Source: an uncultured Gemmatimonadales bacterium
GTDB lineage: Bacteria > Gemmatimonadota > Gemmatimonadetes > Longimicrobiales > Gaopeijiaceae
DNA length: 64,000 nucleotides
Reading direction: 5' to 3'
Assembly (NCBI GenBank): GCA_963809895.1
Contig: CAWELD010000003.1
Location: 3,168,001 to 3,232,000, forward strand
The number at the start of each line of letters is the position of its first letter. The stretch's first letter is position 1. Shown one piece after another: positions 43,291 to 64,000 of this stretch. The position numbers and the translations under genes were made by a program. The notes under the pieces were generated by a model, which did no database searches, was not told where the DNA came from, and saw nothing but the letters and a program-made list of their open reading frames with translations.

Positions 43291-44394
43291 ATGGACACCT
43301 CACAGAAGCGCGCCCCGCCCCGTCGTCCATGCCTGGTCCGCGTGGCCGACCGCGGCGACGTGCTGGAGATCGCGTTCGGCCGGGGATTCACCGAGTCCGA
43401 TGTCGCCACCGTGAAGGCGCTCCCCCAGCGCCGCTGGGACGCCGAGCGGAGCGTCTGGATCGTGCCCAAGGCCGAGGGCGTCGACGAGGCGCTCGAGCGA
43501 AGCTTCGGCGCCCGCATCCGACGCACCCGGGCCGAGCCGCCCGCGAACCCCGAGGGTCCCGAGACCCTCCTGGACCGCACCCGCACCGAGCTCGTCATCC
43601 GGGGCTACGCGAGGCGCACACAGAAGATCTACCTCGGCCACCTGCGCCGCTTCCTGGAGTGGTGCGACCACGACCTCGGCTCCGATCCTCCTCGCCGCAT
43701 GCGTGCCTACCTGCTCCACCTGGTGGAGGACCGGGGCGCCTCGCGGAGCTATCACAACCAGGCCGTCAGCGCCCTGAAGCTCCTGTGCGAAGCGGTGCTC
43801 GGCGAGCCCCGCCTGGCCGAGCGGGTCCCCCGCCCCAAGCCCGAGAAGCGCCTGCCACAGGTCTTGAGCCGCGCCCAGGTGCGTCGCCTCGTGAACCAGA
43901 TCCGCCATCCCAAGCACCGCGCCATCGTTCTCCTGCTCTATTCCGCGGGACTCCGGGTCGGCGAGGTCGTCCGGCTCAAGAAGGAGGACCTGGACACCGA
44001 CCGCGGCCTCCTGCGCGTGCGCCAGGGCAAGGGCAGCAAGGACCGCTACACCCTGCTCTCCACCCGTGCCCTCGAAGCCGTCCGCATCTATCAAGCCGCG
44101 TATCCTTCAGAGGAGCGCTGGCTCTTTCCCGGCGAGCGCAGGGGGCGCCACTACGGCAGCCGCTCCGTGCAGAGGATCGTCCGCGAGGCCGCCCGCAAAG
44201 CCGGCCTCGGCGAGCACGTCACGCCCCACGTGCTCCGTCACTCCTTCGCCACCCACCTACTCGAGGCCGGCACCGACCTCCGCTACATCCAGGAGCTCCT
44301 CGGCCACAAGAGCAGCCGCACCACCGAGATCTACACCCACGTCAGCTCCACCCGCCTGGCGGCCATCCGGAGTCCGCTGGACGAGGAGGGGTGA
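43291..44394 (+). CDS. Tyrosine recombinase, integron-integrase-like but without the I2 insertion; N-terminal HARP-like domain
   Basis: GLRVGE, QGKGSKDR, HVLRHSFATH, LLGH, IYTHV intact; IntI-like N-terminal SAM region (RGYARRTQKIY, SYHNQAVSALK). Confidence 0.92.
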   Translation: MDTSQKRAPPRRPCLVRVADRGDVLEIAFGRGFTESDVATVKALPQRRWDAERSVWIVPKAEGVDEALERSFGARIRRTRAEPPANPEGPETLLDRTRTELVIRGYARRTQKIYLGHLRRFLEWCDHDLGSDPPRRMRAYLLHLVEDRGASRSYHNQAVSALKLLCEAVLGEPRLAERVPRPKPEKRLPQVLSRAQVRRLVNQIRHPKHRAIVLLLYSAGLRVGEVVRLKKEDLDTDRGLLRVRQGKGSKDRYTLLSTRALEAVRIYQAAYPSEERWLFPGERRGRHYGSRSVQRIVREAARKAGLGEHVTPHVLRHSFATHLLEAGTDLRYIQELLGHKSSRTTEIYTHVSSTRLAAIRSPLDEEG

Positions 44395-44484
44395 GCGAAG
44401 GACTCACGGAGTGGCCGCGACCAGCGCATCTCACCCACGCCCGGGTTAGATTGCCACTGATCGCGCACTCGACGGAGGGGCGCC

Positions 44485-44691
44485 ATGGCGGAAGTGACAG
44501 TGTCGACCAGGTACCGGATCGTAATCCCCAAAGCGGTACGGGAGACGCTCGGGGTCGAGATCGGCCAGAAGCTCCAGGCCTTCGCGGGCCCACGTCAGAT
44601 CATCCTCGTCCCCGTGGAGCCCCTACCCGTCATGAGGGGATTCCTGAGCAGGCTCGAGAACGACTTCGACCGCGCACTCGATGAAGGGTGA
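44485..44691 (+). CDS. AbrB/MazE-type antitoxin-like protein (no adjacent toxin)
   Basis: VSTRYRIVIPKAVRETLG; SD GGAGG. Confidence 0.75.
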   Translation: MAEVTVSTRYRIVIPKAVRETLGVEIGQKLQAFAGPRQIILVPVEPLPVMRGFLSRLENDFDRALDEG

Positions 44692-44959
44692 CGGCAGCGC
44701 GGGCCCGCCCCTCAGACGGTGGCAAGTGGCCTGCGTCATCGAGGGCGTAGCACTGATGATCGGGCTCGTGATGCCCGTCACGCCCAGTAAGACCGGATCC
44801 GATTGGAGCATGGCGCAGCTTGTCTTCCCGGAGCCCTCGTACCTCCAGGAGGTGCTCGTCTACTTCGTGCTGACGAACCTTCTGATCGTCGCGTTCGTCG
44901 GAACCCTGTGGCTGTTCGTCCGGCTCGAGCAGCGGCGCCCGAAGGCCTCGGGGGATTAG
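44681..44959 (+). CDS. Small two-TM membrane protein
   Basis: Two hydrophobic segments. Confidence 0.55.
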   Translation: MKGDGSAGPPLRRWQVACVIEGVALMIGLVMPVTPSKTGSDWSMAQLVFPEPSYLQEVLVYFVLTNLLIVAFVGTLWLFVRLEQRRPKASGD

Positions 44960-45137
44960 GGGCCGATCCTCGCCGCCCAACCCACCGAGGCCCAAGCATT
45001 GCGGCTAGGGTGTGCCCGGTGCAATATGAAGTCGGGGGATTCACGAGGCGCAGAGGCCAGGGCCCGAAGAGGACCTAAGGCCCGACCACACCTTCGGAAA
45101 TCTCCGGGCGATGGGCGAACTCGTGCCAGACACACCC

Positions 45138-45163
45138 AACGCCCATAAGGAGTTATGCAAAAT
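45138..45163 (+). other. attI-like primary recombination site
   Basis: CCCATAAGGAG|TTATGC: first GTTA of the array with no upstream attC hairpin; pairs with cassette-1 inverse core GCATAAC. Confidence 0.65.
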
Positions 45164-45465
45164 GCGGTGGTGCGGCCTGGGTCGCTGGCGCCGGACGAAG
45201 CCTTCGGAAAAGGGCGAGCGATCGGGTCGAGTGACCGCCTCCCCAGCCCCTCTTCATGGGTTGGCACCCTTCCCTTTCCCGACCCATTCTAAGCCGGCCA
45301 TGGCTTCGATCCCCGAGCTCCGGCAGGGGCTGGGTTCGGCTACCATCGTCGCCCCGGGGTCCAACTCAGCCTTCGAGAGGCAACGGCTTCCTCCGGCCTA
45401 CGGCTCCTCGCCGGGCTGCGGTACGTGGGCCATCGGTGATCACTCCGCAGCACCTCACGCACTCT
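45153..45465. repeat. ORF-less structured cassette body, copy 1
   Basis: Homologous to 45627-45934 and 50253-50559; nested inverted repeats. Confidence 0.85.
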
Positions 45466-45632
45466 GCATAACAACAAGGCTTCCGGCTCCGCGCCCGCCG
45501 TGCACGGCGCGGCCTCCGCGCAACCGGCCCACGACCAAGTGGAAGACCCTGGCGAAGCCGGCAGCAACTCAGCGTAACCTGCGAGTCGAACGATTGGACG
45601 GGGGCCGGTTCGGAAGCCCCGTCACGTTATGC
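45466..45632 (+). repeat. attC-like site 1 (family A)
   Basis: GCATAAC-aacaa-GGCTTCCG...CGGAAGCC-ccgtcac-GTTATGC. Confidence 0.88.
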
Positions 45633-45934
45633 AAAATGCGTGGTGCGGCCTGGGTCGCTGGCGCCGGACGAAGCCTTCGGAAAAGGGCGAGCAATCGGGT
45701 CAGATGACCGCCTCCCCAGCCCCTCTTCATGGGTGGATGCCCTTCCCTTTCCCGGCCCATTCTAAGCCGGCCATGGCTTCGATTCCCGAGCTCCGGCAAG
45801 GGGCTGAGATCGGCTACCGTCGTCGCCCTGGGGTCCAACTCAGCCCTCGGCGGCCCGGCTTCCTCCGGCCTACACTCCTCGCCAGGCTGCGGTACATGGG
45901 CCATCGATGTCACTCCGCAGCACCCACGCACTCT
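45627..45934. repeat. ORF-less structured cassette body, copy 2
   Basis: Tandem, diverged copy of cassette 1. Confidence 0.85.
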
Positions 45935-46100
45935 GCATAACAACAACGCTTCCGGCTCCGCGCCACGCCTGAACGGCGCGGCCTCCGCGCAACCGGCCCA
46001 CGAGCAGGTGGAAGACCCTGGCGGAGCCGGCAGCAATCAGCGTAACCTGCGAGTCGAACGATTGGACGGGGGCCGGTTCGGAAGCCCCGACACGTTATCG
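45935..46100 (+). repeat. attC-like site 2 (family A)
   Basis: GCATAAC...GCTTCCG...CGGAAGC...GTTATCG. Confidence 0.88.
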
Positions 46101-46173
46101 GGCAGCGCGGAATCGGCGTGTCTGGAAGTACGGTTGTACGATGCTCGGCAACTGAGACGTGCGTGGTGTTCTC

Positions 46174-46380
46174 ATGGCAAACAGCGCGAAATCCCTTCAG
46201 AGAGTCCTGGCGGCCTTGGTGGGGTTGGGCCTTGGTGGTGTGGGGTCTGGCGTGTTGGTCATGCTGTGGGGCATCGCAGGTTGGCCCCTCTTGATTCCAA
46301 TGCTCGTGGGCCTCGCAGCGGGCGCGATGTTCGGGGATTGAGGAATCGGCCTCTTGGCCCGTGCCCTCGCTGGGCTGTAG
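46174..46380 (+). pseudogene. Cassette small membrane protein with internal TGA at 46339
   Basis: Hydrophobic ORF continues in frame after TGA (GIGLLARALAGL*). Confidence 0.5.
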
Positions 46381-46423
46381 TCGACCGGAGTCGGTGGATT
46401 GGGGAATGGTGGGCGGCGCCGCC

Positions 46424-46513
46424 CGATAACAATGCGGGTGGCGCCTGCGCTCGCTACGCTCGCTCCGGGGAACACGGCACGCGATGCGCGCCGCGCCGGA
46501 CCCTTGGAACGTT
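46424..46513 (+). repeat. attC-like site 3 (family C-like), R' split by IS insertion
   Basis: CGATAAC...ggaacGTT| then IS; continues ATGTGC at 48019. Confidence 0.8.
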
Positions 46514-46526
46514 GATATGGAAGGGC

Positions 46527-46756
46527 CTGTCAAGGTATGTAGCGCGAAGTGTGGGGAGCCCGGGGCGGCTTCGACGATGAATCCTGCTGATATTCGATGG
46601 TTGAGCCCGTCAGGGCCCAGAGCATCAGGAGACGGATTCGTCGGGAGCTGGCTGGAGTCTATTCGCGGGGATTGGGCGCTGGGCCGTACCCCGTAACGTT
46701 TTCGGGCGTTCTCCTATCGTGCCCCGAGACTCCCCAATGTTCGCTCGCTGGTTGAA
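46527..46756 (-). ncRNA. Putative bridge/seek RNA-encoding non-coding end of the IS
   Basis: Non-coding region 3' of transposase; contains AACGTTA (target match) and ATATCAG (circle-junction match). Confidence 0.6.
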
Positions 46757-47906
46757 TCAGGCGGCGCGGCTCACCTCCTGAAGCTGAGAGACATCCACGT
46801 CGCGGAGGACGGCCCAGAGGAAGCCGACCATCTCGCGGGCGACGGCCGTGGCGGCCACCGGCCTGGGCTTCTTGGCGGCGAGTCGATGGAAGAGAGTGTA
46901 GAGGCGATGCTGACACTTCCAGGCGTGCTGAATGACGGCGGGATCCTGGCCGCGTTGACGGCGGCGGAGGGACGCGCCGACGGCCGGGCGCTTCCGATAG
47001 TGCCATGCAGCCTGGATCAGGATATGGCGGCACACGTGTGTTGCCGGCCTTGGTGATGGCGCCCAGGCGTCGCCGCTCTCCCGAGGAGTGCTCGCTGGGG
47101 ATGAGGCCGACGTAGGCCATGAGCTGGCGCGGACTCTCGAAGCGGCGAACGTCGCCGAGCTCGGTAGCGAGGACCATGGCGGCCTGGGTCTTGAAGCCGC
47201 GGAAGCAGCGGAGGCGGTCGACCAGGGGCTTGTAGCGCGGCGTGAGGGCGAGGTCCTCGATGCGACGGTCCAGCTCGTCGCGTCGCTGGAGCTTGTACTC
47301 GAGCAGCGCGAGGTACTCCGAGAGCACGATCTGGTCTTCGTCGGCGAAGGTGCCGGGGTCGAGCATGTGGCGGATCCAGTCGAGGTGGCGCACGGTCCAG
47401 TGGGTGCCCTCGCGATAGATGAAGCCTCGGCGGCGCATGAACTTGAGGATATAGTGGCGCGATTTGACGATCTCGCGCTGGAAGGTCTCGCGGCAGCGGA
47501 CCAAGTCGCGCACCCGCTCGTCGGCCTCGGTGGGCACGTGAATGAGGACGAGGCGGTCGTCACGGAAGTCACGAGCGATCTTGATGGCGTCGCGGCGGTC
47601 GGACTTGCGGTGCTCGCCCGGCCGCGCGCGGGATCAGCGAGGGCGCGGCCAGATCGCAGGGCGACGCCCCAGTCGACGAGGGAGCGCTGGAGCACGTAAC
47701 CCGCACCCGAGGCCTCGTAGCAGGCGCGCACGGACGCCCTCGGCTTGGAGCCGCTGGAAGTAGCGGCGGACTTTGCGGAGATCGTAGGGGAGGCGGTCGA
47801 CGCGCATGGGCTCCGGATCACGGTCCCGGAACACGGCCGCAGTGACGGAATCCTTGTGGACGTCGAGGCCGACCCAGAAGATTGGGGCACGATGGGATGA
47901 TGACAT
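46757..47906 (-). pseudogene. IS110 family transposase with several frameshifts
   Basis: VGLDVHKD, CYEASG, RFESPRQLMAYVGLIPSEHSSG, ITKAGN, AVARE spread over three frames. Confidence 0.88.
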
Positions 47907-48071
47907 GGGGCTGGTCTCCTGTCGGTTGCGGCTCGACCGCCGCATGTGGCGCTGGCGTTGCCTCTCACGCGACGCTAATCCACGACATCCGCGGGAGGCC
48001 AGCCCTTCCATCGTGTCTATGTGCAATCGCGGGGACGAGAGGTCGCGCGAAGCGGAGCGTTCGACCTGGCG

Positions 48072-48569
48072 ATGATGACAGGAGATGCCTGGGTGGTCGA
48101 GTTTGACCGTAGGAAGCCGTTCGGAATCACGGTGGCCATGGTGTTCCTCGGCCTCCTTGCCAGTCTCGGGTCGGTTGCCGGCCTCGCCAATCTCCTCACG
48201 TCACTCTTCGGCGAAGGGCCGTTCCTAATGAACGGCGTCATCGTGCCAAGGCACGAGTTTCTCCGTTTCGCTCTTCCATTCATTCTATTCTACCTCAGTC
48301 TGTGCACTCTGGCTGGGGCCGCCGCGTGGTCCATCCATGTTGAGCATCCACGTTCCAGGCCCTTGTTGTTGATCTATGCGGCTTCTCTCGTCTTCACGAG
48401 CCCGTGGTCCCTTGCCCTTGGAGTGCCAGCCGCGGACGTGGCCTCATCAACGCTGTCCGCAGCCTTGGTCACAGGATTGGTCTGGTTCTACTTGTATCGA
48501 AAGAAGGCGGTGGTTCAGTACTACGACGCGATCAGGATCGCCCAGATGGCGCGCCCGGAACGACACTAG
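48072..48569 (+). CDS. Cassette membrane protein, unknown function
   Basis: Four hydrophobic helices; fills cassette 4. Confidence 0.7.
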   Translation: MMTGDAWVVEFDRRKPFGITVAMVFLGLLASLGSVAGLANLLTSLFGEGPFLMNGVIVPRHEFLRFALPFILFYLSLCTLAGAAAWSIHVEHPRSRPLLLIYAASLVFTSPWSLALGVPAADVASSTLSAALVTGLVWFYLYRKKAVVQYYDAIRIAQMARPERH

Positions 48570-48601
48570 CGGTGGCGCCTCAACGCAATTGTGGCGACCG
48601 C

Positions 48602-48761
48602 ACATAACAACAGGGCGTTCCGGCTCCGGCCGCAGGTGCGGCCTCCGCTGCAACCGGCCCACGAACATGAGGAAGACCCTGGCGCAGCCGGCAGCAATCA
48701 GCGTAACCTGCGAGTCGAACGGTTGGAGCGGGGCCGGTTCGGAAGCCCCTTCACGTTAAGC
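48602..48761 (+). repeat. attC-like site 4 (family A)
   Basis: ACATAAC...CGGAAGCC-ccttcac-GTTAAGC. Confidence 0.87.
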
Positions 48762-48777
48762 GAAGTCGCGACAATCC

Positions 48778-50001
48778 CTGGTTGGCGCGCATGTTCACCG
48801 TGAGTGGAGGTATGCTATCCGGACTTGGCGATTCCTGGCCGTAGCGACCGCCTGGGTCACTCCCGCCCTTGGCGCTTGCACGGCCGACGAGGAACCGACC
48901 GAAGACACGGCTCCTGCGGCGCGTCTTGAGGAGACGCTGCGTGTCGGATCGGTAGAGGGAGATCTGTCCTTCGGTACGATCCTGAACGTTGCCCGGGGAC
49001 CGGGAGGCCGGACGTATGTGGTCGAGCCGGTCGGGTCTCGAGTCTCGATCCTAGATTCGGACGGGACACGGGTCGGAACGGTCGGTGGCGCCGGCATGGG
49101 CCCAGGGGAGTTTGCTCGTCCAGGTCGGATGGGATGGGTCGGGGACACTCTCTGGATCTTGGACGGGGCGAACTACCGGTTCTCGCTCTTCTCCCAGGCC
49201 GGCGAGTTCATCGGCGAGGTCAATCCGCAGATCGCCGAGCGGCAAGACCCTTCCGACATACCTCCTCGACCCGTGGGTCTCTTGCCGGGCGGCGTCCTCT
49301 TCGCGAGGACTTCGGTGCCCTCCCATCTGGTGGCGCAGGGTGTCATCGACAGCCTCACGTACTACTCGCTCGATCGGGACGGCGCCATTCTCCGAGAGCT
49401 GCATCGCACGCGGGCTACGCCGCCGCTATGGATTCACAACCCGGACTCGCGGAATCCGATCTCGGGCCGCTTCAAGGCACAGCCTTTCGTCACAGGGGAA
49501 CTTGTCGTGCCCAGCCCCGATGGCGCGTTCGTGACCGCCACGGCGAGTGAGGGTCGGACGGTCGTGACGAAGATCAGCCTCGACCTCGATACGATGTGGA
49601 GTCGCACTCTTCCTGTGAGTCCACCCCCACTCTCGGAAGCCACGATCGACAGTCTCATTGAAGCCGAGTCTGAGAGCTTCGCGCGGTCTCCGGCGGCTGA
49701 GGGCGCCACAGCAGCTCGTATCGCGACGTGGGTACGAGATGCTCTGGTGACTCCGGAGGTCAGGCCCGGATTGGAGGAGATGGTCGTCGGTCACGACGCC
49801 AGCATCTGGATCGCTCATCCGGACACTGCCGGAGCTCGGCAGTGGGTGGTTCTCTCGAGCGACGGGAGGGTCCAAGCGAGAGCAGCCCTGTCGCGAGAGG
49901 TGACGGTCTTCGATGGGTGGGAGAACGGACTGATCGGCGTAGTCCACGACGCTCTCGATGTCCCTCGGATCGTGAGGTACGAGCTACGAGGCGGAGGCTA
50001 G
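48778..50001 (+). CDS. Cassette 6-bladed beta-propeller lipoprotein (start uncertain)
   Basis: Frame open upstream of 49018 with lipobox LGAC; GMGPGEF motif; no canonical in-frame start before the lipobox. Confidence 0.7.
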   Translation: MVGAHVHREWRYAIRTWRFLAVATAWVTPALGACTADEEPTEDTAPAARLEETLRVGSVEGDLSFGTILNVARGPGGRTYVVEPVGSRVSILDSDGTRVGTVGGAGMGPGEFARPGRMGWVGDTLWILDGANYRFSLFSQAGEFIGEVNPQIAERQDPSDIPPRPVGLLPGGVLFARTSVPSHLVAQGVIDSLTYYSLDRDGAILRELHRTRATPPLWIHNPDSRNPISGRFKAQPFVTGELVVPSPDGAFVTATASEGRTVVTKISLDLDTMWSRTLPVSPPPLSEATIDSLIEAESESFARSPAAEGATAARIATWVRDALVTPEVRPGLEEMVVGHDASIWIAHPDTAGARQWVVLSSDGRVQARAALSREVTVFDGWENGLIGVVHDALDVPRIVRYELRGGG

Positions 50002-50094
50002 CGGGGTTCGACGGACCGACCGCTGCTTCCTCCTCCAGAGGTCGGGCGCGTTGGCGCCGAAGGCCGGCGCGATGTGCGTCTCGATTGCGACCTC

Positions 50095-50258
50095 GCTTAA
50101 CTGCGGGCTTCCGGCTCCGCGCCGCTGAACGCGGCGCTCCGTCCCAACTGGCCGCGGCCGTCAGCGGAAGGGTCTGGCGGTCAGGCTGCGGGCGAACGTA
50201 CTCTGGCCACCTGAAGCACTGCTGACGGGGCCAGTTCGGAAGCCCTGACACGTTATGC
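50095..50258 (+). repeat. attC-like site 5 (family A)
   Basis: GCTTAAC...GGCTTCCG...CGGAAGCC...GTTATGC. Confidence 0.87.
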
Positions 50259-50559
50259 CCAATGTGGAGGCGCGTCGTGATCGCGGGCACCGGAGGAAGC
50301 CTTCGATAGGTCGCGAGCGAGAAGGTCAGTTGACCGCCTCCCCAGCCCCTCTTCAGGGGTTGGCACCCTTCCCTTTCCCGACCCCTTGAGCCAGCCATGG
50401 CTTCGATCCTCGAGCTCCGGCTTGGGGCTGGGTTCGGCTACCATCGTCGCCCCGGCGCGCAACCCAGCCTTCGAGAAGCAAGGGCTTCCTCCGGTTTCGG
50501 CTCGTCGCCGGGCTGCGGTACGCGGGCGATCCCGACCACTTCCCAGCGCCTCCCCACAG
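50253..50559. repeat. ORF-less structured cassette body, copy 3
   Basis: More diverged homolog with compensatory substitutions. Confidence 0.85.
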
Positions 50560-50729
50560 GCATAACAACAAGGCTTCCGGCTCCGCGCCACGCCGTTGAA
50601 CGGCGCGGCGCTCCGTCCCAACCGTCCCACGACCAAGCGGAGGACCCTGGCGGAACCGGCTGCTCTCAGCGTACCCTGCGAGTCGAACGGTTGGACGGGG
50701 GCCGGTTCGGAAGCCCCTTCACGTTAGGC
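50560..50729 (+). repeat. attC-like site 6 (family A)
   Basis: GCATAAC-aacaa-GGCTTCCG...CGGAAGCC-ccttcac-GTTAGGC. Confidence 0.88.
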
Positions 50730-50772
50730 GTAATGTTCCGTGCCAAGTTATCCATTGTGACGGAGACAACTG

Positions 50773-52338: not shown

Positions 52339-52409
52339 TGTCGATATCATCCGAGCGCAAGGCGGTGTCGCGATCATCATGCTAACGCCGACCAGGCACT
52401 GAACACTAC

Positions 52410-52567
52410 GCCTAACAAATGCGTTGCGCCTACGCCGCGCAAGCGCGGCTCCGGAGAACACCGGCGCAGCGGGGCTGGTGGCCCGCAGGAAGCGGACGGA
52501 GTGATCGCCTGGAGCGCACCGTTCGCAGGTTGTGATGCGCCGACGTCGCAACTCTTGAACGTTAAGT
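52410..52567 (+). repeat. attC-like site 7 (family B variant)
   Basis: GCCTAAC...GTTGCG...CGCAAC-tcttgaac-GTTAAGT. Confidence 0.85.
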
Positions 52568-52655
52568 GTCATGCCGCGGCTGGCCGAACAAACGCCGAAA
52601 GGCTATCTTTCCCAAACAGAACGTAACCGTCCCCACTTCCGTCGAGAGGATCGAA

Positions 52656-53447: not shown

Positions 53448-53454
53448 ATCAATC

Positions 53455-54548: not shown

Positions 54549-54586
54549 GCATTGAGTCAGGCCACCGTGCGGAACGAAGGCACGAC

Positions 54587-54682: not shown

Positions 54683-54745
54683 GACATGGCTCAAGGCCTG
54701 CAACCTGAAAGGAGGCAGTGGCATGCGACACGCAAAGGCCTTCCG

Positions 54746-55765: not shown

Positions 55766-55824
55766 TAGTGGGGGGACCTTGGGCGGGGGTGTGAGAGCGT
55801 GGAAGTGGTGAGCTGCGCCACGTC

Positions 55825-55842
55825 GGTTAAAAGGAGTTAAGT
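55825..55842 (+). other. Minimal attI-like cassette junction
   Basis: GGTTAA-AAGGAG-TTAAGT with no hairpin. Confidence 0.75.
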
Positions 55843-55910
55843 GCCACTGCCATTGGAACGGTCTCCGTACGGGGCTCACTGGAAACCTAGAGCTGGAAGA
55901 GGGTGCGGCG

Positions 55911-57653
55911 ATGCGAATCGAGAGCGTTGAGATCGAGGGATTTAGGTCGTTCGGGCTCGACCCTGTCTTGATCCGCTTCCCGGAGATTGACGTGCCGATA
56001 TCAGTCATCGGGCACAACAACTCGGGGAAGAGCAACTTCCTCGCCGCGCTGCTGCACGGCACCGCCACGCGGCCGTCCTACCCGAACAACTTCAGTCTGG
56101 ATGACCTTTTTGGACGGGATGAAGGGACGATCTGCAACATCGACGTGCGGATCTCGCCACCCCTACTGAGTGCGAATGCCTTCAACAACGTGACCGAGAT
56201 GCCTTCGCTTCGGCTTCGGATACAATGCGAGGCGGGCGTGATCGAAACGTCCCATTACTGCTTCGATCCTGACGGGAAGCAGGTCTACAACGTTCGGTCG
56301 GTCAAGCGAAGTAAGAGCAAGGTCTATTCGGAGGACGAAAAGGAGACGCTGACGACGTACGCGCGCACCGGCGCGGAGCAGGTGCACAAATGGCGCTCCA
56401 AGATCCCCATCTACTACATCGGTCCGGAGACGCTGTATAAGGAGCTGACTCCGTCCCGGTTCAGTCTGCTGGGGAAGGTGATCGACTCGTTCCGGGCCGA
56501 GTTTGAGGACCCGGAGAGCACGATGGAGGCGGCGGACGGCGTGGTGGACTCCCACATCGGGCGACCGCGTGCCGAGATCTACGAACAGGCGATGCGATAC
56601 ATCGAGGAGCACGTTCTCCCGGCATCTGGCTTTCGGGCTTTCGTAGATGAAGTTGAGGCGATCGTCCGGGAGCAACTCGCCGTAGACGAGGAGTCGTTCG
56701 GGGTTCGATTCAGACCACCAGTTGCGGACGCGTTCTTCAAGAACCTTCGGTTTCACATCAGGGAGAATGAGCATCGACCGTTGCTCCCGATCGACCGGAT
56801 GGGGTCCGGCTTCGTCTCTCTGTTTGTGGTGGCCCTACTGCGAGCCCTCGTCGACACCGACGAGGGTGGAAAGATCTTCTTGCTCGAAGAGCCCGAGACC
56901 TATCTCCACGAGCACTACCAGGACTACTTCTACGAAGTGCTGTGCGAGCTCGCTGAGTCAAACCAGGTGGTCTACACGACTCACTCGAAGAAATTCGTGA
57001 ACGTCTTCCGGCCGGAGTCCATCATTCGACTTAGCGCGACTCCCGACGGGACTGTCCCCGTGACGGCGGGGGGCGGGGCCGTAGACTTCCCGGACGGCGT
57101 TGACGGCTACGAGCTGAAGAGCCCCGAGGACTTCCCGAAGTTTCTTTGTACCCTGGAGCCGAATCTCGGGAACACAGTGTTCGCTTCACGCGTCGTTGTG
57201 GTAGAGGGCCCGCACGACCTCTTGGCCTACCGAACCGCCCTCGACGGATCCGTCGAATGGGGACTTCGGAACACCGCGGTGGTCAGTGCGTGGGGTAAGG
57301 ACACCGTCGCGGCGCTAGTTGAACTCTGCCACGCCTTCGAAGTACCTGTCTTCGCGATCCACGACCGAGATCTTCCGCAAGAGATCAGTGACGACGATCC
57401 GGTTGATTCCCTGACTCCCGGTCAGAAAGCCCAGCGGACCAAGAATGCACGGATCGCGGGCTTGTCGGGACCCAATCACGTCCACCAGAATCGACCGAAT
57501 CTCGAGGGCGTCCTGGGGATCCCACCGGAGGAGAAGTCCGCCGAAGCCGTCTTCGGCGCGTTAGCTGGGAAGGATCTCCACGAGGTTCGGACCGAGTTCC
57601 CTGGGCTGATTCCCGACGCTCTCCTCGAGTTTCTTCAAGTACCGACCGATTAG
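55911..57653 (+). CDS. OLD family ATP-dependent endonuclease (ABC ATPase + TOPRIM)
   Basis: GHNNSGKS, MGSG, LLEEPE, TTHS, VEGPHD, HDRD. Confidence 0.9.
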   Translation: MRIESVEIEGFRSFGLDPVLIRFPEIDVPISVIGHNNSGKSNFLAALLHGTATRPSYPNNFSLDDLFGRDEGTICNIDVRISPPLLSANAFNNVTEMPSLRLRIQCEAGVIETSHYCFDPDGKQVYNVRSVKRSKSKVYSEDEKETLTTYARTGAEQVHKWRSKIPIYYIGPETLYKELTPSRFSLLGKVIDSFRAEFEDPESTMEAADGVVDSHIGRPRAEIYEQAMRYIEEHVLPASGFRAFVDEVEAIVREQLAVDEESFGVRFRPPVADAFFKNLRFHIRENEHRPLLPIDRMGSGFVSLFVVALLRALVDTDEGGKIFLLEEPETYLHEHYQDYFYEVLCELAESNQVVYTTHSKKFVNVFRPESIIRLSATPDGTVPVTAGGGAVDFPDGVDGYELKSPEDFPKFLCTLEPNLGNTVFASRVVVVEGPHDLLAYRTALDGSVEWGLRNTAVVSAWGKDTVAALVELCHAFEVPVFAIHDRDLPQEISDDDPVDSLTPGQKAQRTKNARIAGLSGPNHVHQNRPNLEGVLGIPPEEKSAEAVFGALAGKDLHEVRTEFPGLIPDALLEFLQVPTD

Positions 57654-57686
57654 GGTGTGCTCGCGTGCGCCCGAGAGGCGATTCAT

Positions 57687-58232
57687 ATGAGGATTAGGTC
57701 CCTCAAAGGCCTTCTCGCGAAGTACGATGCGGCCCCAGGACGGGTGCGTGCCTACTTCCCTCACTTCAAGCAACTCGCTGAAGACTTCCCGTATGACGTA
57801 GTCCTTGCCTACGTGTTTGGTCAGGTCGAGCTAGCGCAGAACATGACGCTGTATTGTGGGATCGTGAAGCTGCATCGCGCCGATGCGAGCTTGGCTCGAA
57901 AGGTGGTCGACTCCCACCACATGACCCGACCGGGGTTCAGGGAGAAGGTCAAGGTGGTTTACGGCACGCCAATCCCCGCCGATATCACCGCGAAACTCGA
58001 CAGGGCCGAGAAGACGCGAGACAAAGTGATGCACGGGAAGGCCTGTACGGACGCTGAGAAGCGGAACGCGTTGGGCTACGTTCTAGAGTATGCCGAGGAC
58101 TTGAATGCCCACCTAGAGGAGTTGGCCGGCATTCAGCCGTTCGGGGACCTTCGTGGCTTCAAGGGACGAGCCAAGAGTCTCGATAAGAAAACGACCAGGT
58201 GGATCCTGAAGGGTATGGGTTTCGGCGCATGA
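57687..58232 (+). CDS. Putative HEPN-like protein
   Basis: All-helical character, RDKVMH (Rx4H) motif. Confidence 0.5.
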   Translation: MRIRSLKGLLAKYDAAPGRVRAYFPHFKQLAEDFPYDVVLAYVFGQVELAQNMTLYCGIVKLHRADASLARKVVDSHHMTRPGFREKVKVVYGTPIPADITAKLDRAEKTRDKVMHGKACTDAEKRNALGYVLEYAEDLNAHLEELAGIQPFGDLRGFKGRAKSLDKKTTRWILKGMGFGA

Positions 58233-58240
58233 GCAGCGTC

Positions 58241-58399
58241 ACTTAACTGAGTGTTGCCGCCTTCGTTCGCTTCGCTCACTTCGGTGAATCACGGCCCCGA
58301 ACTCTTCTGGCTGTTGGAGCAGTAGCTGGAGCGTGAGCTGACCGGTGTGCCAGGCCGGCTCGGTTTTCGGGCCGCGCCGGCAACACAATCACGTTATAT
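58241..58399 (+). repeat. attC-like site 10 (family B)
   Basis: ACTTAAC...GTTGCCG...CGGCAAC-acaatcac-GTTATAT. Confidence 0.88.
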
Positions 58400-58482
58400 G
58401 AAACTCGGAACGAGCATGTGGAGGGGACGGACCTGAGGGTGTATACTCTGGTGAACCTCATGTTGTCCGGGAGGGCTGAGCC

Positions 58483-58713
58483 ATGAACGACGAGTCTACA
58501 AAGGATGAGGTGGTCGAGGAGTTGAACCGATTGGCCGAAGCCGATCGGCGTCGGGTCCTGGACTACGCTCGTTCACTCGGCCGCCGCGTTTCGAAGGGCG
58601 TGGCCGGCGACTCACTTCTGTCGCTGGCTGGGTCGTTACCAGAGGCGGAGGCATCGGCCATGGAGGCGGCCATTGAGGATGGGTGTGAGCGGGTGAACCT
58701 CGGTGCCTGGTAG
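58483..58713 (+). CDS. Putative antitoxin (VapB-like)
   Basis: Small ORF overlapping a PIN toxin start. Confidence 0.65.
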   Translation: MNDESTKDEVVEELNRLAEADRRRVLDYARSLGRRVSKGVAGDSLLSLAGSLPEAEASAMEAAIEDGCERVNLGAW

Positions 58714-59221
58714 GGCACTTCTCGATACGAGTGCCGTCGTCGGGCTCCTGCGCGGCGACAAGTCTGCAGTGAAGAAGGTCGGATCTCTGGACGAGGCATT
58801 CACGAGCATCGTGGTGATCGGCGAACTCCTTTACGGAGCTCGCCTCTCGACGGGTGCAGAAACGAACCTGGCGCTGGTTGCCTCGTTTGCGTCGTCGATC
58901 ACCGTCCTCGTTGCCAAGGAACTGGACGTGTCTCTATCGAAGGTGCCGGAACTTAGGGCAAGGTTCGAGCGGGCCCGCGACATTGTGGACGCGGCAACCC
59001 CCGCAGACGCCTTCCGGAGAGGTGTCCGCTATTCGATCCAGGACGCCCTCGAGGAAGGTCTGGGGTCCCCCGAGGCGATCGAACGCCTGGTCGTACAGAT
59101 TTGCTACAGGGCTGCCGATCTGAGTGTGTTGTTGGACTCGGAGGGGAGTGCGTTGTCCGACTACTCCGCCGAGCTCCGTGTCGAATCGGATGTCTCAGGT
59201 CTTGGCGGCGAGGGTATGTAA
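58703..59221 (+). pseudogene. Truncated VapC/PIN toxin fused to an unrelated ORF tail
   Basis: LLDTS and VIGELLYG present; second half lacks PIN C-terminal acidic motifs. Confidence 0.65.
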
Positions 59222-59253
59222 TGGCGGGCTGAGCCTTGGGGCGGGCCAACAGC

Positions 59254-59271
59254 AGATAAAAGGAGCTATCT
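59254..59271 (+). other. Second minimal attI-like junction (GTT mutated to GCT)
   Basis: AGATAA-AAGGAG-CTATCT; right part complements the inverse core CAGATAAC at 60150. Confidence 0.65.
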
Positions 59272-59334
59272 GAAGCTGGCTTCGCAACCCGCACTCACGC
59301 GTCGCGACGGGAACTGACTGGGAGAGTCTGGCGT

Positions 59335-59358
59335 GAGTATACTAGTATCGGTATACTC
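59335..59358. promoter_or_regulatory. Palindromic operator / -10 region of TA operon
   Basis: GAGTATAC-N8-GTATACTC containing TATACT. Confidence 0.6.
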
Positions 59359-59387
59359 GTTCATGAGCAGACGCGACGCCCAAGCCG

Positions 59388-59732
59388 GTGGTCTGGCTCG
59401 GATCGGCCCGATCGGACCTACGCTCGTTCCCGGAGGAGGTCCGTACAGACGTGGGCTTCGCCCTCTGGGTGGCACAACGGGGTGGACGGCCCGCCCAGGC
59501 GAAGACGCTCAAGGGAATCGTCTCCGGTGCGGGCGTGCTCGAGCTGGTCGAGCGCCGCGACGGGGACACCTATCGAGTGGTGTACACAGTACGGTTCGCG
59601 GATGCGGTGTACGTACTCCACGCATTCCAGAAGAAGTCGAAGCGCGGAATCAAGACGCCGAAGCATGAGATCGACCTGATTCGGTCGCGGCTCAAGGCCG
59701 CGGAAGAGCACTACGGTGGGAGCGGACGATGA
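59388..59732 (+). CDS. RelE/HigB-like toxin (Gp49/DUF891)
   Basis: TYRVVYTVRFADAVYVLHAFQKKSKRGIKTP. Confidence 0.88.
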   Translation: MVWLGSARSDLRSFPEEVRTDVGFALWVAQRGGRPAQAKTLKGIVSGAGVLELVERRDGDTYRVVYTVRFADAVYVLHAFQKKSKRGIKTPKHEIDLIRSRLKAAEEHYGGSGR

Positions 59733-60058
59733 CCAAGGACCAGATTGAGGAGAGTTCGGGGAACGTATTCGCGGACCTAGGTCTCGCCGAGGCGGAAGAA
59801 CTCCATACAAAGGCTCAGCTTGCGCATCGGATCGGCGAGATCGTTCGCGGTCGCCACCTCACGCAGGCCGAGGCTGCGGACGTGCTTGGTGCGACGCAGC
59901 CGATCGTCTCGAGGCTGATGCGTGGCCAGCTGCACGGATTCTCGCTAGAGCGTCTCATGCGGTTCCTCAACGCTCTGGACCGCGACGTTGAGATCGTGGT
60001 CCGGCGCCGGCCACGGAGTCGAGATCACGGCGAGACACGGGTGAAGGTCACCGGCTGA
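59729..60058 (+). CDS. XRE/HTH antitoxin (HigA-like)
   Basis: SSGNVFADLG, LTQAEAA, GFSLERL. Confidence 0.88.
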   Translation: MTKDQIEESSGNVFADLGLAEAEELHTKAQLAHRIGEIVRGRHLTQAEAADVLGATQPIVSRLMRGQLHGFSLERLMRFLNALDRDVEIVVRRRPRSRDHGETRVKVTG

Positions 60059-60150
60059 CCCGCCGGGTAACGACAGTCACCCGCTTGGAGAGACGCCCGA
60101 GTTGGGTTCGTTTAAGCCGCTCTGGTTCTCCGACCAACGAAGCCATCAAC

Positions 60151-60314
60151 AGATAACTCCAGGCTCCCGGCTCCGCACCGCTGAACGCGGCGCTCCGTCC
60201 CAACTGGCCTCGGCCGTCTCGGAAGGGGGTTTCGCATCGGCTGCGAAGGGACGTATGCTGGCCGCATGAAGCCGTGCTAACGGGGGCCAGTTCGGAAGCC
60301 CCTTCACGTTAGAC
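60151..60314 (+). repeat. attC-like site 12 (family A, close to site 5)
   Basis: AGATAAC...CGGAAGCC-ccttcac-GTTAGAC. Confidence 0.85.
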
Positions 60315-60362
60315 GGAATGGCATCGTCAACGAGTGGACCATCTGGCTTGGAAGCGGAGTCT

Positions 60363-60857
60363 ATGGAGGTAAGTAGAGCGAACTCGGCCGACCAACAGGT
60401 CGCAGAGGCCCTTCGCTGGATTAGCGAGATCTTCGATCGCATCGGCGCACAGTACCAAGTCGTGGGCGGACTCGCCGCGCGTGCGTATGGGGCGACTCGT
60501 CCCCTGATCGACCTCGACTTCTATGTCCGAGCCGAAGATCTGCCCCGAGTATTGGCTTGTGTGGGCGACTCATGTGTTTGGGGACCAGAGCATTTCAAGG
60601 ACGAGAACTGGGACCTGACGTTCGCCAAGCTCGAGAGGCGGGGAGTTCAGATTGAGTTGGCCGAAGCGGAAGGAGCTCGATACTACAGTCCGGGCACCGG
60701 TGAGTGGCTGGACCAGGACATCGCATTCCAGGACTCCGAGCGACACACGGTGCTTGGGGTGGAGATACAAGTGATGCGCAGGGGCCAGCTCGTCGCGTAC
60801 AAGCGAGCCTTGGATCGCCCGGTAGACAGGCTGGACCTCAGTGAGATAGCGGAATGA
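60363..60857 (+). CDS. Nucleotidyltransferase-fold protein
   Basis: VVGGLAA...DLDF, KRALDRPVD. Confidence 0.75.
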   Translation: MEVSRANSADQQVAEALRWISEIFDRIGAQYQVVGGLAARAYGATRPLIDLDFYVRAEDLPRVLACVGDSCVWGPEHFKDENWDLTFAKLERRGVQIELAEAEGARYYSPGTGEWLDQDIAFQDSERHTVLGVEIQVMRRGQLVAYKRALDRPVDRLDLSEIAE

Positions 60858-60931
60858 GCGTGGGGCGATGCCGAGGAAGTAGCCCGACTGAGAACCGGAT
60901 CCAACAGGCGGGTCGCCGACCATGCCACTGC

Positions 60932-61023
60932 GTATATCAAACGGGTACCGCCTTCGCTCACTACGTTCGCTCCAGAGAACACGGCTCGCGTTGCAGCCGC
61001 GTCGGTACCCCGACACGTTATCA
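60932..61023 (+). repeat. attC-like site 13 (family C, degenerate R'')
   Basis: GTATATC-aaacg-GGTACCG...CGGTACC-ccgacac-GTTATCA. Confidence 0.75.
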
Positions 61024-61113
61024 GACACACGAACAAGAAGGCGGAGTGGAGCCGGGGCGCGTTGGCGGGGTAGAAGGCCCATTGCGCTGCTCAGATTGCC
61101 ATGGAGGTCTCAA

Positions 61114-61344
61114 ATGCGAACCGGTGCCGAAGAGCTCGAATTGGCGGTTCTCTCTCTCCCGGCGGGAGATCGTGCTCGGTTGGCGAGACGCCTGATCGAG
61201 AGCCTTGATCAGGACCCCGAGATCGAAGCGGCTTGGGAGAAGGAAATCGCTCGACGGGTAGCCAAGATCGAGTCCGGCGACGCGACACTCGTTGCTGCGA
61301 AGGACGTGTTCTCGGAGGCGCGTCGCCTGATCGATGCGTCGTGA
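61114..61344 (+). CDS. Addiction module antitoxin component
   Basis: LSLPAGDRARLARRLIESLD...AWEKEIARR. Confidence 0.85.
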   Translation: MRTGAEELELAVLSLPAGDRARLARRLIESLDQDPEIEAAWEKEIARRVAKIESGDATLVAAKDVFSEARRLIDAS

Positions 61345-61631
61345 CCCTCCGGTTCGAAGCGGAAGCAGCTGAGGAGTTCTACCGCGCGATCCAGTACTAC
61401 GAGGGCCAGTCTCCAGGCCTCGGTGCGGAACTCCTCGCCGATCTCGAGCGCTTGGAAGGCCTGCTCATCGCGAATCCTGAGATGGGCAGTCCTGGTCCAA
61501 TACACACCCGCCGTGTGCTTCTCTCACGGTTTCCATTTGTTCTGGTCTACCGGCTCTTTGACGGTGAGCCGGTCGTCCTCGCCTTCGCTCATCAACGGAA
61601 GAAGCCAGGGTATTGGCTAGATCGGGTCTGA
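61341..61631 (+). CDS. ParE/RelE family toxin
   Basis: YYEGQSPGLG, RFPFVLVY, AHQRKKPGYW. Confidence 0.87.
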   Translation: MTLRFEAEAAEEFYRAIQYYEGQSPGLGAELLADLERLEGLLIANPEMGSPGPIHTRRVLLSRFPFVLVYRLFDGEPVVLAFAHQRKKPGYWLDRV

Positions 61632-61644
61632 GCGCTGTACCGGT

Positions 61645-61665
61645 CGGTACCCTGGAACGTTAAGC
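61645..61665 (+). repeat. Right half of a deleted attC-like site (family C)
   Basis: CGGTACC-ctggaac-GTTAAGC with no upstream TAAC. Confidence 0.65.
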
Positions 61666-61721
61666 GCCATGACGTGGACGGAGTGCAGGAGGCAGCATTC
61701 GTCTCGAAGGAGGAGGTGTGT

Positions 61722-61949
61722 GTGACCCGGCTCCAAGGTCAGTACTTAGCGTTCATCGCTGTCTATACCAAGATCAATGGCAAGGCGCCTGCGGAAGCTG
61801 ATTTGCAGAGGTACTTCAAGGTGACCCCACCGAGCGTCCACGATATGATTCTGCGGCTTGAAGCATCGGGATACGTACGCCGCACGCCGGGACGGGCGCG
61901 ATCGCTGGAGGTTCTCATACCAGAGGAGGAGGTGCCACAACTTGAATAG
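61722..61949 (+). CDS. Stand-alone LexA-like winged-helix DNA-binding protein
   Basis: QGQYLAFI...PAEADLQRYF...PPSVHDM...PGRARSL. Confidence 0.75.
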   Translation: MTRLQGQYLAFIAVYTKINGKAPAEADLQRYFKVTPPSVHDMILRLEASGYVRRTPGRARSLEVLIPEEEVPQLE

Positions 61950-62321
61950 TACCTGTCGGAGGTCGGCACGCATCCGATGGTGTGAAGGATGTGGTCTCGT
62001 GAGGTCCGACAAGAGCTTCAATCGGATAGGGCTCATTGGATAGGATCCGCATTCCCTTCGGGTCGAGAATCGACGTCCCGCTGGCTCAGAAGCATCGTGA
62101 GCTGATCCGTGAGCATACGTTCATCGATCCTGAGACTGAACGTGCCTTGAACCTGGCAGTCTCTGATGGGGCGAACCTCCTGGCCCGATTGAGAATGGAG
62201 GACCTCGACGATCTCATTAGGGGGATCCGTAGATAGGAAGGCGAGTTGGCTACAGTATGGATGGTGGGTGGAGGAGGTCGGCCCGTTCTCGTTACGGCTT
62301 ATCCATGGAAGGGGGAGACGC

Positions 62322-62546
62322 ATGAACGAACTAGACACGGTTGTGCTACGACGCGCTCTGCCGGACTTCGGTCTGGTGGAAGGTGATGTCGGAGCCATCG
62401 TCCATGTCCACGCCCCCGATGCATTCGAGGTTGAATTCGCGACCGGTGAGGGAACGACGCTGGCTGTCGTGACGCTCCGGGCAGCCGACCTGCGGCCGAT
62501 CGACGCTCACGAGTTGCTTCACGTCCGCACGGTCGCGCACGGCTGA
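62322..62546 (+). CDS. DUF4926 domain protein
   Basis: ELDTVVL...GDVGAIVHV...FEVEF. Confidence 0.82.
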   Translation: MNELDTVVLRRALPDFGLVEGDVGAIVHVHAPDAFEVEFATGEGTTLAVVTLRAADLRPIDAHELLHVRTVAHG

Positions 62547-62589
62547 CCCGGCGGATGTCGACGGTGGGACCTGCACGGACAGCGGCAGC

Positions 62590-62684
62590 AGCGAACTGAA
62601 AAGTTGCCGCCGCCGTTCGCTCACGCTCACTTCGGTGAAGCACGGCCCTGTTCGGGCCGCGCCGGCAACTCCGACACGTTAGAA
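62590..62684 (+). repeat. attC-like site 15 (family B)
   Basis: AGCGAAC...GTTGCCG...CGGCAAC-tccgacac-GTTAGAA. Confidence 0.82.
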
Positions 62685-62687
62685 GAA

Positions 62688-63173
62688 ATGGGCCGTGTCA
62701 CGGGCGAAGTCGAAGGAGTAGCGGTGTTGAACAGTGCATTTCGCCTTGCGACGGTTTCTCTTCTGATCGTATGCTTCGGAGCCAAAGGCACTCAACTCTC
62801 CTCGTTACCCGCCTGTTTCGACGTGACGTCCTCGCCCTGGAACCTGCGGGCCGATGAGGTGCCTCGTGCGGCCCGACTGACGCTGACTTCCGAGCCATTC
62901 TACTTCGAGCTCTACGGCCCCGATCCTCTCGGATTCCGCGCGACACTCTTCTTCGAAACCGGCGACTCTGCCTCCTTGGCCTGGCATCTCTCCGAGGGGA
63001 ACGACACTCTGTCCGCGTCGTTCGGGGTCCACGAGCGCTATGCCCTGATCGTGACTCCCGCCGGCGATCGGACTCTCGACGGCGAACTGCGGTGGGAAGA
63101 CGACGGCGGGGGAACCGCAGTGTCATCTGTGCTGCTCCATCCTGTGGGTTGCGCCGAGGTGGCTAGACGATGA
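62688..63173 (+). CDS. Cassette hypothetical secreted protein
   Basis: ORF filling cassette 16, N-terminal hydrophobic stretch. Confidence 0.55.
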   Translation: MGRVTGEVEGVAVLNSAFRLATVSLLIVCFGAKGTQLSSLPACFDVTSSPWNLRADEVPRAARLTLTSEPFYFELYGPDPLGFRATLFFETGDSASLAWHLSEGNDTLSASFGVHERYALIVTPAGDRTLDGELRWEDDGGGTAVSSVLLHPVGCAEVARR

Positions 63174-63259
63174 CGGTCAACGCCCGGCGGTCGAGGGAGA
63201 CCTGACTACCCAAGTTGAGGAGAGTCAGCGGTCAGCTTCGTCCGACCGCGGCCCACTCC

Positions 63260-63320
63260 TTCTAACAGGAAGGCTTCCGGCTCCGCGCCGCTGGCGCGGC
63301 CTCCGTCCCAACCGGCCTCC
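63260..63320 (+). repeat. Left part of attC-like site 16 (family A), interrupted by IS
   Basis: TTCTAAC-aggaa-GGCTTCCGGCTCC...CAACCGGCC then similarity ends. Confidence 0.8.
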
Positions 63321-64000
63321 ATGAGAAGGCCCGCCGTGTCAAGCTCGGTCGCATCATAGTTCGAGTCGTGCCCTCGCCGTGCCTCCATTCGCAGTCCTGG
63401 TCGGCCGCTCGGGCCTGCTGCATGCTGGTGTCCGTCCCTGCCGGGCGCTGCAATCCCTTTGACGGTCTTGAGAGACCTGGGCCGGTAGCGCAGTCACCCG
63501 GACAGGGCGTCGAGCGCGTCTCGTGTCGTGAAGCGACCTCGTGGTCGTCGGAACCTCCGAGTGTGATCGGTGCGATTCGTGTCGGTTCAGGGGATCAGGC
63601 GGCGACCTCCGCGCCGGCCTCCGGGACCTCCGTGTCGGCGTTGTGCAGCGGCTCGTAGACCTCACCCGTGACCCAGAGTCGGTGAAGGAGCACGGCCAGT
63701 TTGCGGGCAACCGCGATGATGGCCCTCCTCTTGGCCGCCGGCCCGCCTCGTTCCGCGAGCCGGAGTCCCCAGCGTCTCAGATCGGTGTCCGGTCCGAAGG
63801 GTCCGAGGACGTAGTGGGCCGACTGCACGAGGAGGGTGCGGAGCATCCGGTCGCCGGCCTTCGTGGTCGAGAGCTCCGGACTCGACTCGCCTGACTGGTG
63901 CCGTCGAGGCACAAGCCCCAGGTAGGGGCCCACAGCCCGGCTCGTGGAGAACCGATCCGGGCTCTCGAGCGTCAGCAGGTAGGTGAGCGCCGTGAGCGTT
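63321..64000 (-). mobile_element. Second IS110 family element (partial; right end approximate)
   Basis: Transposase C-terminus, about 270 bp non-coding tail, outward TTGACA at 63342-63337. Confidence 0.8.
63595..64000 (-). CDS. IS110 family transposase, C-terminal part
   Basis: YLGLVPRRHQSG, TKAGDRMLRTLLVQSA, AVARKLAVLLH. Confidence 0.9.
   Translation of the reverse strand, partial: TLTALTYLLTLESPDRFSTSRAVGPYLGLVPRRHQSGESSPELSTTKAGDRMLRTLLVQSAHYVLGPFGPDTDLRRWGLRLAERGGPAAKRRAIIAVARKLAVLLHRLWVTGEVYEPLHNADTEVPEAGAEVAA

Follow-up and report, generated by a model that had tools for sequence, protein, structure and literature searches.

A probable second type of sedentary integron-like platform headed by a tyrosine recombinase without the I2 insertion in an uncultured Gemmatimonadales bacterium

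Introduction

Integrons and the clusters of attC sites lacking integron integrases (CALINs) are described in the standard way in the available parts of two sources (PMC8618304; 10.1101/2022.02.06.479319), and the second of these, a preprint on archaeal integrons, defines the integrase IntI by an additional domain. As far as the consulted sections of three papers go, this insertion, I2, accommodates extrahelical bases; these prevent a second strand exchange and give preference to the bottom strand (PMC4792948, PMC3053210, PMC5027507). In integron recombination I2 and the extrahelical bases are regarded as a core that evolved together, and how the two arose jointly has been called a chicken-egg paradox (PMC4792948, in the excerpted text). 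Here we analyse a cassette array and its adjacent recombinase gene in a 64,000-nucleotide stretch (the window) of an uncultured Gemmatimonadales bacterium (assembly GCA_963809895.1, contig CAWELD010000003.1, positions 3,168,001 to 3,232,000; genome G000, contig C3 in our labels). The locus works like an integron but fails two of the defining features, I2 and the extrahelical base.

Two further descriptions are close to this locus. An 'integron-like' subgroup of simple tyrosine recombinases, in which the insertion is not fully conserved, is mentioned in the accessible portion of PMC8138268, and cassettes of the delta-attI type, closed by a shortened attI in place of an attC, are known from class 1 integrons (PMC12901181, in part). 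No published description of the present system was found in a literature search judged mostly from titles and the openings of abstracts, with subscription journals little covered.

Results

The recombinase lacks I2 and carries an extra N-terminal domain

The recombinase gene (43291-44394, forward strand) has an open frame encoding 367 amino acids with PF13495 and PF00589 domains. The protein exceeds the cut-off of NF040815, a 'recombinase/integron integrase' model (227.2 against 220), and stays under the cut-offs of the XerC and XerD models. Residues R222, K247, H313, R316, H339 and Y348 are conserved across 134 aligned homologs, giving an intact RKHRH-Y catalytic set, as the original prediction of an intact tyrosine recombinase had it. 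The integron-integrase model TIGR02249 matches below its cut-off (210.6 against 265) and in two pieces that leave profile positions 172-218 unmatched, the alignment to VchIntIA (2A3V) jumps over residues 172-223, and the spacing from GKG to HxLRH is 67 amino acids versus 106-108 in 12 measurable IntIs; the window enzyme therefore has no I2, which agrees with the earlier call.

The extra N-terminal domain, likewise proposed earlier, is confidently predicted: an AlphaFold2 model places a separate alpha/beta domain at amino acids ~14-80 (43330-43530, forward strand) with a mean predicted local distance difference test score (pLDDT) of 90.6. Its best Foldseek match is the HARP domain of SMARCAL1 (E 0.035); the N-terminus of UvsW aligns to residues 14-83 (Z 5.7, root-mean-square deviation 3.1 over 59 residues); Pfam HARP (PF07443) matches one of five N-terminal pieces (E 0.00039, under the cut-off); and a profile search of the domain again gives 4o66 (E 0.77). 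These concordant fold, Pfam and profile matches, all below significance or curated cut-offs, suggest a weak resemblance to HARP. In the ESM Atlas, amino acids 10-82 meet unnamed clusters at 0.83-0.84, which we treat as a lead. HARP domains bind branched DNA.

A bulge-free branched site type accompanies the I2-less enzymes

The cassette sites share structure and not sequence: paired AAC/GTT cores with an uneven unpaired spacer (about 4-5 vs 7-8 nt) are followed by an 8-9 bp bulge-free L stem and then by a predicted three-way branch. The stem of the window sites is unbroken over 8-9 bp, whereas the sites behind a canonical intI on another contig of the same genome (C10) have an unpaired base at position 9, counted after AAC. 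This bulge is missing from five of the six strict window sites, from 66 of 67 sites behind I2-less enzymes (five genomes, strict sites with 8 of 8 pairs) and from 77 of 78 sites at nine further I2-less loci; it is present in all 50 sites behind canonical IntIs (eight genomes examined, of which seven gave sites). When the stem is forced, the folds predicted for the bottom strand open into a multiloop no more than 6 nt from it in 64 of the 67 I2-less-type sites vs 2 of the 50 IntI-type sites. Stem positions 6-12 show 2-4 pair types each, full pairing there being a consequence of site selection. The spacer offset is no marker, since it ranges from +1 to +4 in canonical IntI sites and is +2 or +3 in the window. 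The distinguishing marks are the missing bulge and the early branch, and the site type travels with the I2-less enzyme family.

The window genome and a second genome, G249, hold both enzymes, and in each the two arrays are sorted by site type. In G249 all 28 GTTA sites of one array are bulge-free and all 16 of the other score as bulged, and the C10 array of the window genome holds no bulge-free 8/8 site.

Homologous recombinases head similar arrays

We scanned 32 homolog loci, 20 picked for likely long flanks and 12 others, of which the 15 with at least 7.9 kb downstream are informative. Arrays of 3-23 same-strand sites follow the recombinase gene at 12 of these 15 loci (0.1-0.4 in shuffles); of the other 17 loci, 13 end at most 1.6 kb from the gene, two of them exactly at a GTTA. 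In seven of the 12 genomes with arrays nothing passes the TIGR02249 cut-off (G162 and G411, both single contigs, and G192, G084, G536, G399 and G379), two have IntI fragments (G369, G421) and three have a match that does pass it. Linkage of the homologs to such arrays, as the original prediction required, holds at these 12 loci.

Named homologs of the recombinase point to Gemmatimonadota / Longimicrobiales. A homolog at E <= 1e-60 was found in 25 of the 251 genomes searched in the class, and one at E <= 1e-80 in 47 of the 301 searched in the order, a tally including one unpublished genome. Across four families, here f1, f7, f5 and f8, the I2-less enzyme occurs in 13/62, 8/60, 1/45 and 0/26 genomes and IntI, in a different sample that includes three unpublished genomes, in 1/37, 1/15, 69/113 and 32/52; the two tend to occupy different families, a descriptive statement about kin that are not independent. 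Beyond this sample, 6971 of 8000 scored candidates match at E <= 1e-30, a number that includes partners of insertion sequences (IS) and other relatives. At 79 more distant loci a looser detector was used, the strict one having missed most Bacteroidota sites; there, Bacteroidota homologs with the N-terminal domain, including those of Flavobacteriaceae, show similar arrays (six sites at L041, five at L051 and L078, four at L040), and none of 28 loci with a 10 kb flank whose match lacks the domain has more than one site.

A quick tree of 95 proteins places the window enzyme with these homologs in a 67-row group (Shimodaira-Hasegawa-like approximate likelihood ratio test, SH-aLRT, 95). Frames shorter than 260 amino acids, a single duplicate and three loci that do not show the HxLRH pattern were kept out of the tree. 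The 13 IntIs form a clade of their own (SH-aLRT 99) with the window group outside it, the IntI and I2-less enzymes meeting in an open fork. The 67-row group also takes in recombinases adjoining genes that we take to be IS91-like, a name applied on the cysteine pattern only. One genome, G141 (L028, L029), has a 297-amino-acid relative without the N-terminal domain in seven copies beside an IS91-like gene, and one of these copies adjoins that genome's IntI match.

Cassette ends and the attI-like core

In 10 of the 11 window units whose closing core can be identified, the closing RYYYAAC fully complements the four variable bases of the opening GTTRRRY; over all 11, 40 of 44 such bases agree, against a permutation mean of 21.8, and none of 100,000 permutations reaches 40. 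This is in line with the earlier observation that most cassettes open with GTTA and close in the complement. Six units lie outside this count: in five no closing core could be recognised, and the sixth is split by an IS, whose two flanks combined complement the closing core at 48602. The ends of the unit starting at about 61659 mismatch in either one-base register. In four homolog arrays 18 of 27, 10 of 11, 30 of 31 and 2 of 3 units have complementary ends, and in the control, the two cores of the same linear site, 2 of 30, 0 of 14, 4 of 34 and 0 of 4 are complementary. Complementary ends are the trace of cassettes that were once circular units and were joined at G/TT.

A core of the form ATAA-NNAG-TTA lies 110-450 bp behind several homologous genes and is complementary to their first closing core (L019, L125, L126, L135); for this reason CCCATAAGGAGTTATGC at 45142-45158 (forward strand), which fits the pattern and to which closure of the first cassette likewise points, is taken as the putative attI-like site, with cassette 1 starting at 45152. 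The attI-like site of the original prediction is therefore present, but its placement is corrected to about 750 bp after the recombinase gene, behind two open reading frames (44485-44959, forward strand) that comprise an AbrB/MazE-type antitoxin-like gene (44485-44691) and a hypothetical gene and are possibly the remains of decayed cassettes. The GTTA at 44445 was rejected as attI, having no matching closing core and misfitting the family core. A scan of 43000-46200 for promoters and terminators in this high-GC host gave none, with 0 sigma-70 matches where 0.2 were expected.

The AAGGAG[T/C]TA of the attI-like core is found again at 55831 and 59260 as shortened attI junctions, one at 55825-55842 (forward strand), where AAGGAGTTA is common to junction and attI core, and a second at 59254-59271 (forward strand), where GTT is changed to GCT. 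Both are internal junctions of the delta-attI type; the minimal attI-type junctions described earlier are present, but they are not distinctive, delta-attI cassettes being published for class 1 integrons.

A canonical integron in the same genome

The canonical intI on C10 scores 387.8 bits and has an open frame and its own downstream array; together they form a complete, co-oriented integron at G000:C10:600921-636000 (L009-L010). The window array does not fit a CALIN, since the site types of C3 and C10 differ and such arrays are present in genomes without an IntI over cut-off. The position of the window array downstream of and co-oriented with its integrase, listed earlier as a departure from integrons, is correct, but as a distinguishing trait it was rejected because all eight canonical IntIs examined in the phylum also have co-oriented downstream arrays.

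Some further traces were seen in this genome. The L'-R' spacer of the C10 attC sites is about 3 nt longer than that of class 1 sites; the offset in G249 is identical. A lone decayed site of the I2-less type (L013 8760-8920, reverse strand; region of G000:C3:1892769) sits inside a defence-like island, flanked by a reverse-transcriptase-like gene region and restriction-modification-like genes, all named by sequence reading. From L011 7100-7235 onward (G000:C3:3237000-3262000) there are frameshifted genes and decayed sites of both types, and this distal zone holds a canonical-type attC and a gene also present in the C10 array. A solitary canonical-type attC lies at G000:C3:653422 (reverse strand), far from both arrays.

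Extent, cargo and decay of the window array

There are 17 junction start points from 45152 to 62678, equal to 17 cassette units, and the array runs past the window to at least window position 66.7 kb; the earlier estimate of about 16 cassettes over more than 18 kb is revised only in count and extent. GC content falls from 0.708 to 0.620 within the array. A hairpin-site detector finds eight sites in 44395-64000 (seven true and one by chance, with 0-2 in 20 shuffles) and none on either strand of 1-43290. All features below are on the forward strand unless stated otherwise.

Sites of attC-like form with a bulge-free stem occur at 45466-45632 (8-bp stem, branched), 45935-46100, 50095-50258, 50560-50729 and 58241-58399, and a short one (96 nt, branched) at 54587-54682. 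The stem is imperfect at 52410-52567 and in the short-type site 46424-46517 and has one mismatch at 60151-60314; the left core is degenerate at 60930-61023 and in the short-type site 62590-62684. At 63260-64000 an attC-like left arm is split by a second IS110-type element, its right arm lying at window-scale 64877, beyond the window.

The cargo is that of a sedentary chromosomal array: toxin-antitoxin pairs, defence-like genes and gene-less structured cassettes. A Ser/Thr kinase with TPR repeats (50773-52338) is followed by a two-gene cassette (52561-54675) in which DUF5131 and TcmP match the PADLOC candidate pair PDC-M30/M41, and by a cassette with an OLD-family ATPase-TOPRIM nuclease and a hypothetical gene (55836-58392). 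The toxin-antitoxin cassette with Gp49-like and HTH_37 genes (59265-60307) has a 98% copy at window-scale 65727 behind an attC-type junction; the cassette thus follows junctions of two types, with an identical starting base in both copies. A ParE-type toxin-antitoxin cassette (61017-61665) ends in a truncated site with the right arm only; in all, the array has several toxin-antitoxin pairs, and unknown genes besides.

Three cassettes are gene-less (cassette 1, 45152-45625; cassette 2, 45626-46093; cassette 3, 50252-50722); the second and third are 91% and 83% identical to the first, whose ends pair with each other. The one gene-less cassette tested, cassette 1, folds better than shuffles (z about -3.7, both strands). 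Several I2-less arrays contain gene-less cassettes of about 190-400 bp with pairing ends, frequently a large number of them (window 45152-45472, 45626-45941 and 50252-50566; L015 6500-6802, 6956-7258 and 15139-15440; L020, many; L017), and motifs are common to the copies of G000 and G162. They are possibly a structured RNA or DNA family; Rfam at gathering score gave no match in 43000-64000.

The window copy of the array is partly decayed by two IS110-type elements, deletions and truncated sites. The first element (46700-48017, reverse strand) has a broken transposase frame and sits within the 7-base right core of a junction; the second runs from 63350 to 64000 and onward. The two IS110-family elements differ, and each is single-copy in the genome. 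Both sit within a cassette site, the first in its right core and the second in its branched interior, and such sites may be their targets, just as IS1111-type elements target attC. At 58703-59221 a VapC-like gene has been joined by deletion to the end of an unrelated gene, and a longer, frameshifted copy lies just beyond the window. A listing of sequencing runs named no RNA run as a holder and three metagenomes with small shares, and in the contigs of these no joint cleanly marks an excision. Apparent joints at repeated sites, one leading from 50726 back to 45167 and another from 59246 to 52438, each stand on a single contig of low depth, and we do not count them as evidence.

Discussion

We propose that the locus is probably a second type of sedentary, integron-like platform and that the I2-less recombinase beside it runs it; this recombinase is likely to be the cognate enzyme of the array and to act on folded sites. 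The original prediction is supported in part. Its distinct cassette platform passes the refutation test set for it, since the C10 intI has its own array with another site type and homologs are linked to bulge-free arrays at 12 of 15 loci; of the five departures from integrons listed there, two (co-orientation and internal attI-type junctions) are not distinctive. Stem covariation supports a folded cassette-site substrate, and so does the fact that the sites share no spacer homology.

The enzyme would join the folded single strand of a cassette site to the attI core, itself double-stranded, through a single strand exchange followed by replicative resolution as in IntI. It would read the branch after the L stem in place of the contact between I2 and the extrahelical base, with the HARP-like domain as the simplest reader, and the three-way branch and the uneven spacer would set strand and orientation. 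The system is without both I2 and the extrahelical base, and it shows in combination a protein domain and a feature of the DNA that are both new; that the N-terminal domain reads the branch is a proposal to which we give roughly even chances. The one-strand exchange, the replicative resolution and the role of the domain are our inference.

The recombinase could also be the cognate enzyme and carry out the classical exchange of two strands, at sites that are double-stranded or cruciform, or need a host partner, like XerCD on the folded CTX-phage site, its N-terminal domain then having a role other than branch reading. In the absence of extrahelical bases nothing known blocks the second exchange, the nearest solved structures are XerA proteins, and XerCD, with no I2, act on a phage site whose fold is free of bulges (PMC4792948, in the part available). 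We hold this to be unlikely, since the bases left of GTT vary among sites and from attI, so that the spacer homology needed for double-strand exchange is missing, and since the stem covariation points to a folded substrate.

Several observations weigh against the proposal that the adjacent enzyme runs this array. The canonical intI of C10 is present in the genome and intact. In the excerpted results of PMC5027507, two of the three attC sites tried with IntI1 were not notably affected when every extrahelical base was removed, and the C10 IntI may therefore cross-react with the window sites. The bulge-free L boxes described earlier hold for 66 of 67 sites behind I2-less enzymes, but not for the attC-like site at 48602-48761 (forward strand), which belongs to the same sequence family and has a bulged G at position 9 within the window array; a decayed canonical-type attC lies in the distal region of the array, about 5 kb past the window (C3:3237100-3237235); and one cassette gene family with 73% DNA identity is common to the window and C10 arrays; these three findings speak against strict separation. 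The branch counts come from predicted folds with a forced stem at sites chosen for 8/8 pairs, and a wide structural search with the isolated N-terminal domain (single-sequence model, pLDDT 74) reached a best Z of 4.3 to unrelated folds with no standout. No array follows three of the 15 informative homologs (L021, L130, L131), related genomes are not independent, and at least three sites were found behind only three of eight distant homologs with the N-terminal domain and a 10 kb flank, so linkage is patchier outside the phylum.

The intact C10 integrase, its possible tolerance of missing extrahelical bases, the bulged and the decayed canonical-type site and the shared gene family would also fit a CALIN built and served in trans by the canonical IntI, with the I2-less gene as a neighbour or an early insertion. 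We consider this quite improbable in view of the arrays in seven genomes without an IntI over cut-off, the strict sorting of site types, the conserved attI-like core directly behind homologous genes and the C10 array without a bulge-free 8/8 site. That the locus is a degenerate offshoot of ordinary integrons that lost I2, or a dead relic whose array no longer changes, as its IS insertions, deletions and truncated sites might suggest, is hardly credible given the intact catalytic set in a very large family, the position of the window group outside the IntI clade in the quick tree and the near-identical repeated cassettes.

A wider view can be put forward, tentatively and at slightly less than even chances: a second, widespread integron class with its own recognition code, in which a HARP-fused, I2-less recombinase reads a three-way junction in place of extrahelical bases. 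Such a class would come from, or preserve, a Xer-like pre-I2 state; it would be largely orthogonal to IntI in shared genomes, replace IntI in whole lineages and stand behind Gemmatimonadota and Bacteroidota arrays uncalled by current integrase profiles.

A cassette system without I2 and without extrahelical bases would mean that neither is required for oriented arrays, and would offer a testable intermediate or an independent solution. New here are the within-genome contrast of an I2-less array with a canonical integron and the site and linkage counts; G000 and G249, in which both systems are present, suit a 2 x 2 swap of enzymes and sites. Including the system would enlarge the count of integrons and of the defence-gene cassettes in them, and a structure-specific recombinase orthogonal to IntI could come out of it.

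Comparison with known systems

Like the sedentary chromosomal integrons, including the co-oriented canonical ones of the phylum such as that on C10 of G000, the locus has a tyrosine recombinase with SAM_4 and catalytic domains, GTTRRRY/RYYYAAC cores, a G/TT junction, a same-strand, co-oriented array and toxin-antitoxin, defence-like and gene-less cassettes. Unlike them, its enzyme is without I2 (about 40 amino acids shorter), has an extra N-terminal domain and falls in a separate clade of the quick tree, and its L stem has no position-9 bulge and is followed at once by a predicted three-way branch. The two delta-attI-type junctions of the window derive from its own attI-like core, unlike those of class 1 integrons in the part of PMC12901181 available.

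The window enzyme resembles XerA and XerCD in having no I2, and its best sequence and structure matches are XerA (4A8E, 5HXY). The attI-like core is presumably similar to a short dif-type inverted repeat. Like XerCD on the folded CTX-phage site, the enzyme would meet a bulge-free folded substrate (PMC4792948, as far as excerpted), its fold in the window being predicted. Unlike XerA and XerCD, it is patchy (47 of 301 genomes of the order) and heads a cassette array, and the genome has separate XerC/D-like genes. The HARP domain of SMARCAL1 and the N-terminal domain of T4 UvsW have a small alpha/beta fold as in the window domain, all matches being weak. The 'integron-like' subgroup of PMC8138268, whose datasets may list these proteins, has in the accessible text no I2-less member tied to cassette arrays or to another site type; in the window, an I2-less enzyme stands at the head of such an array, with a site type of its own.

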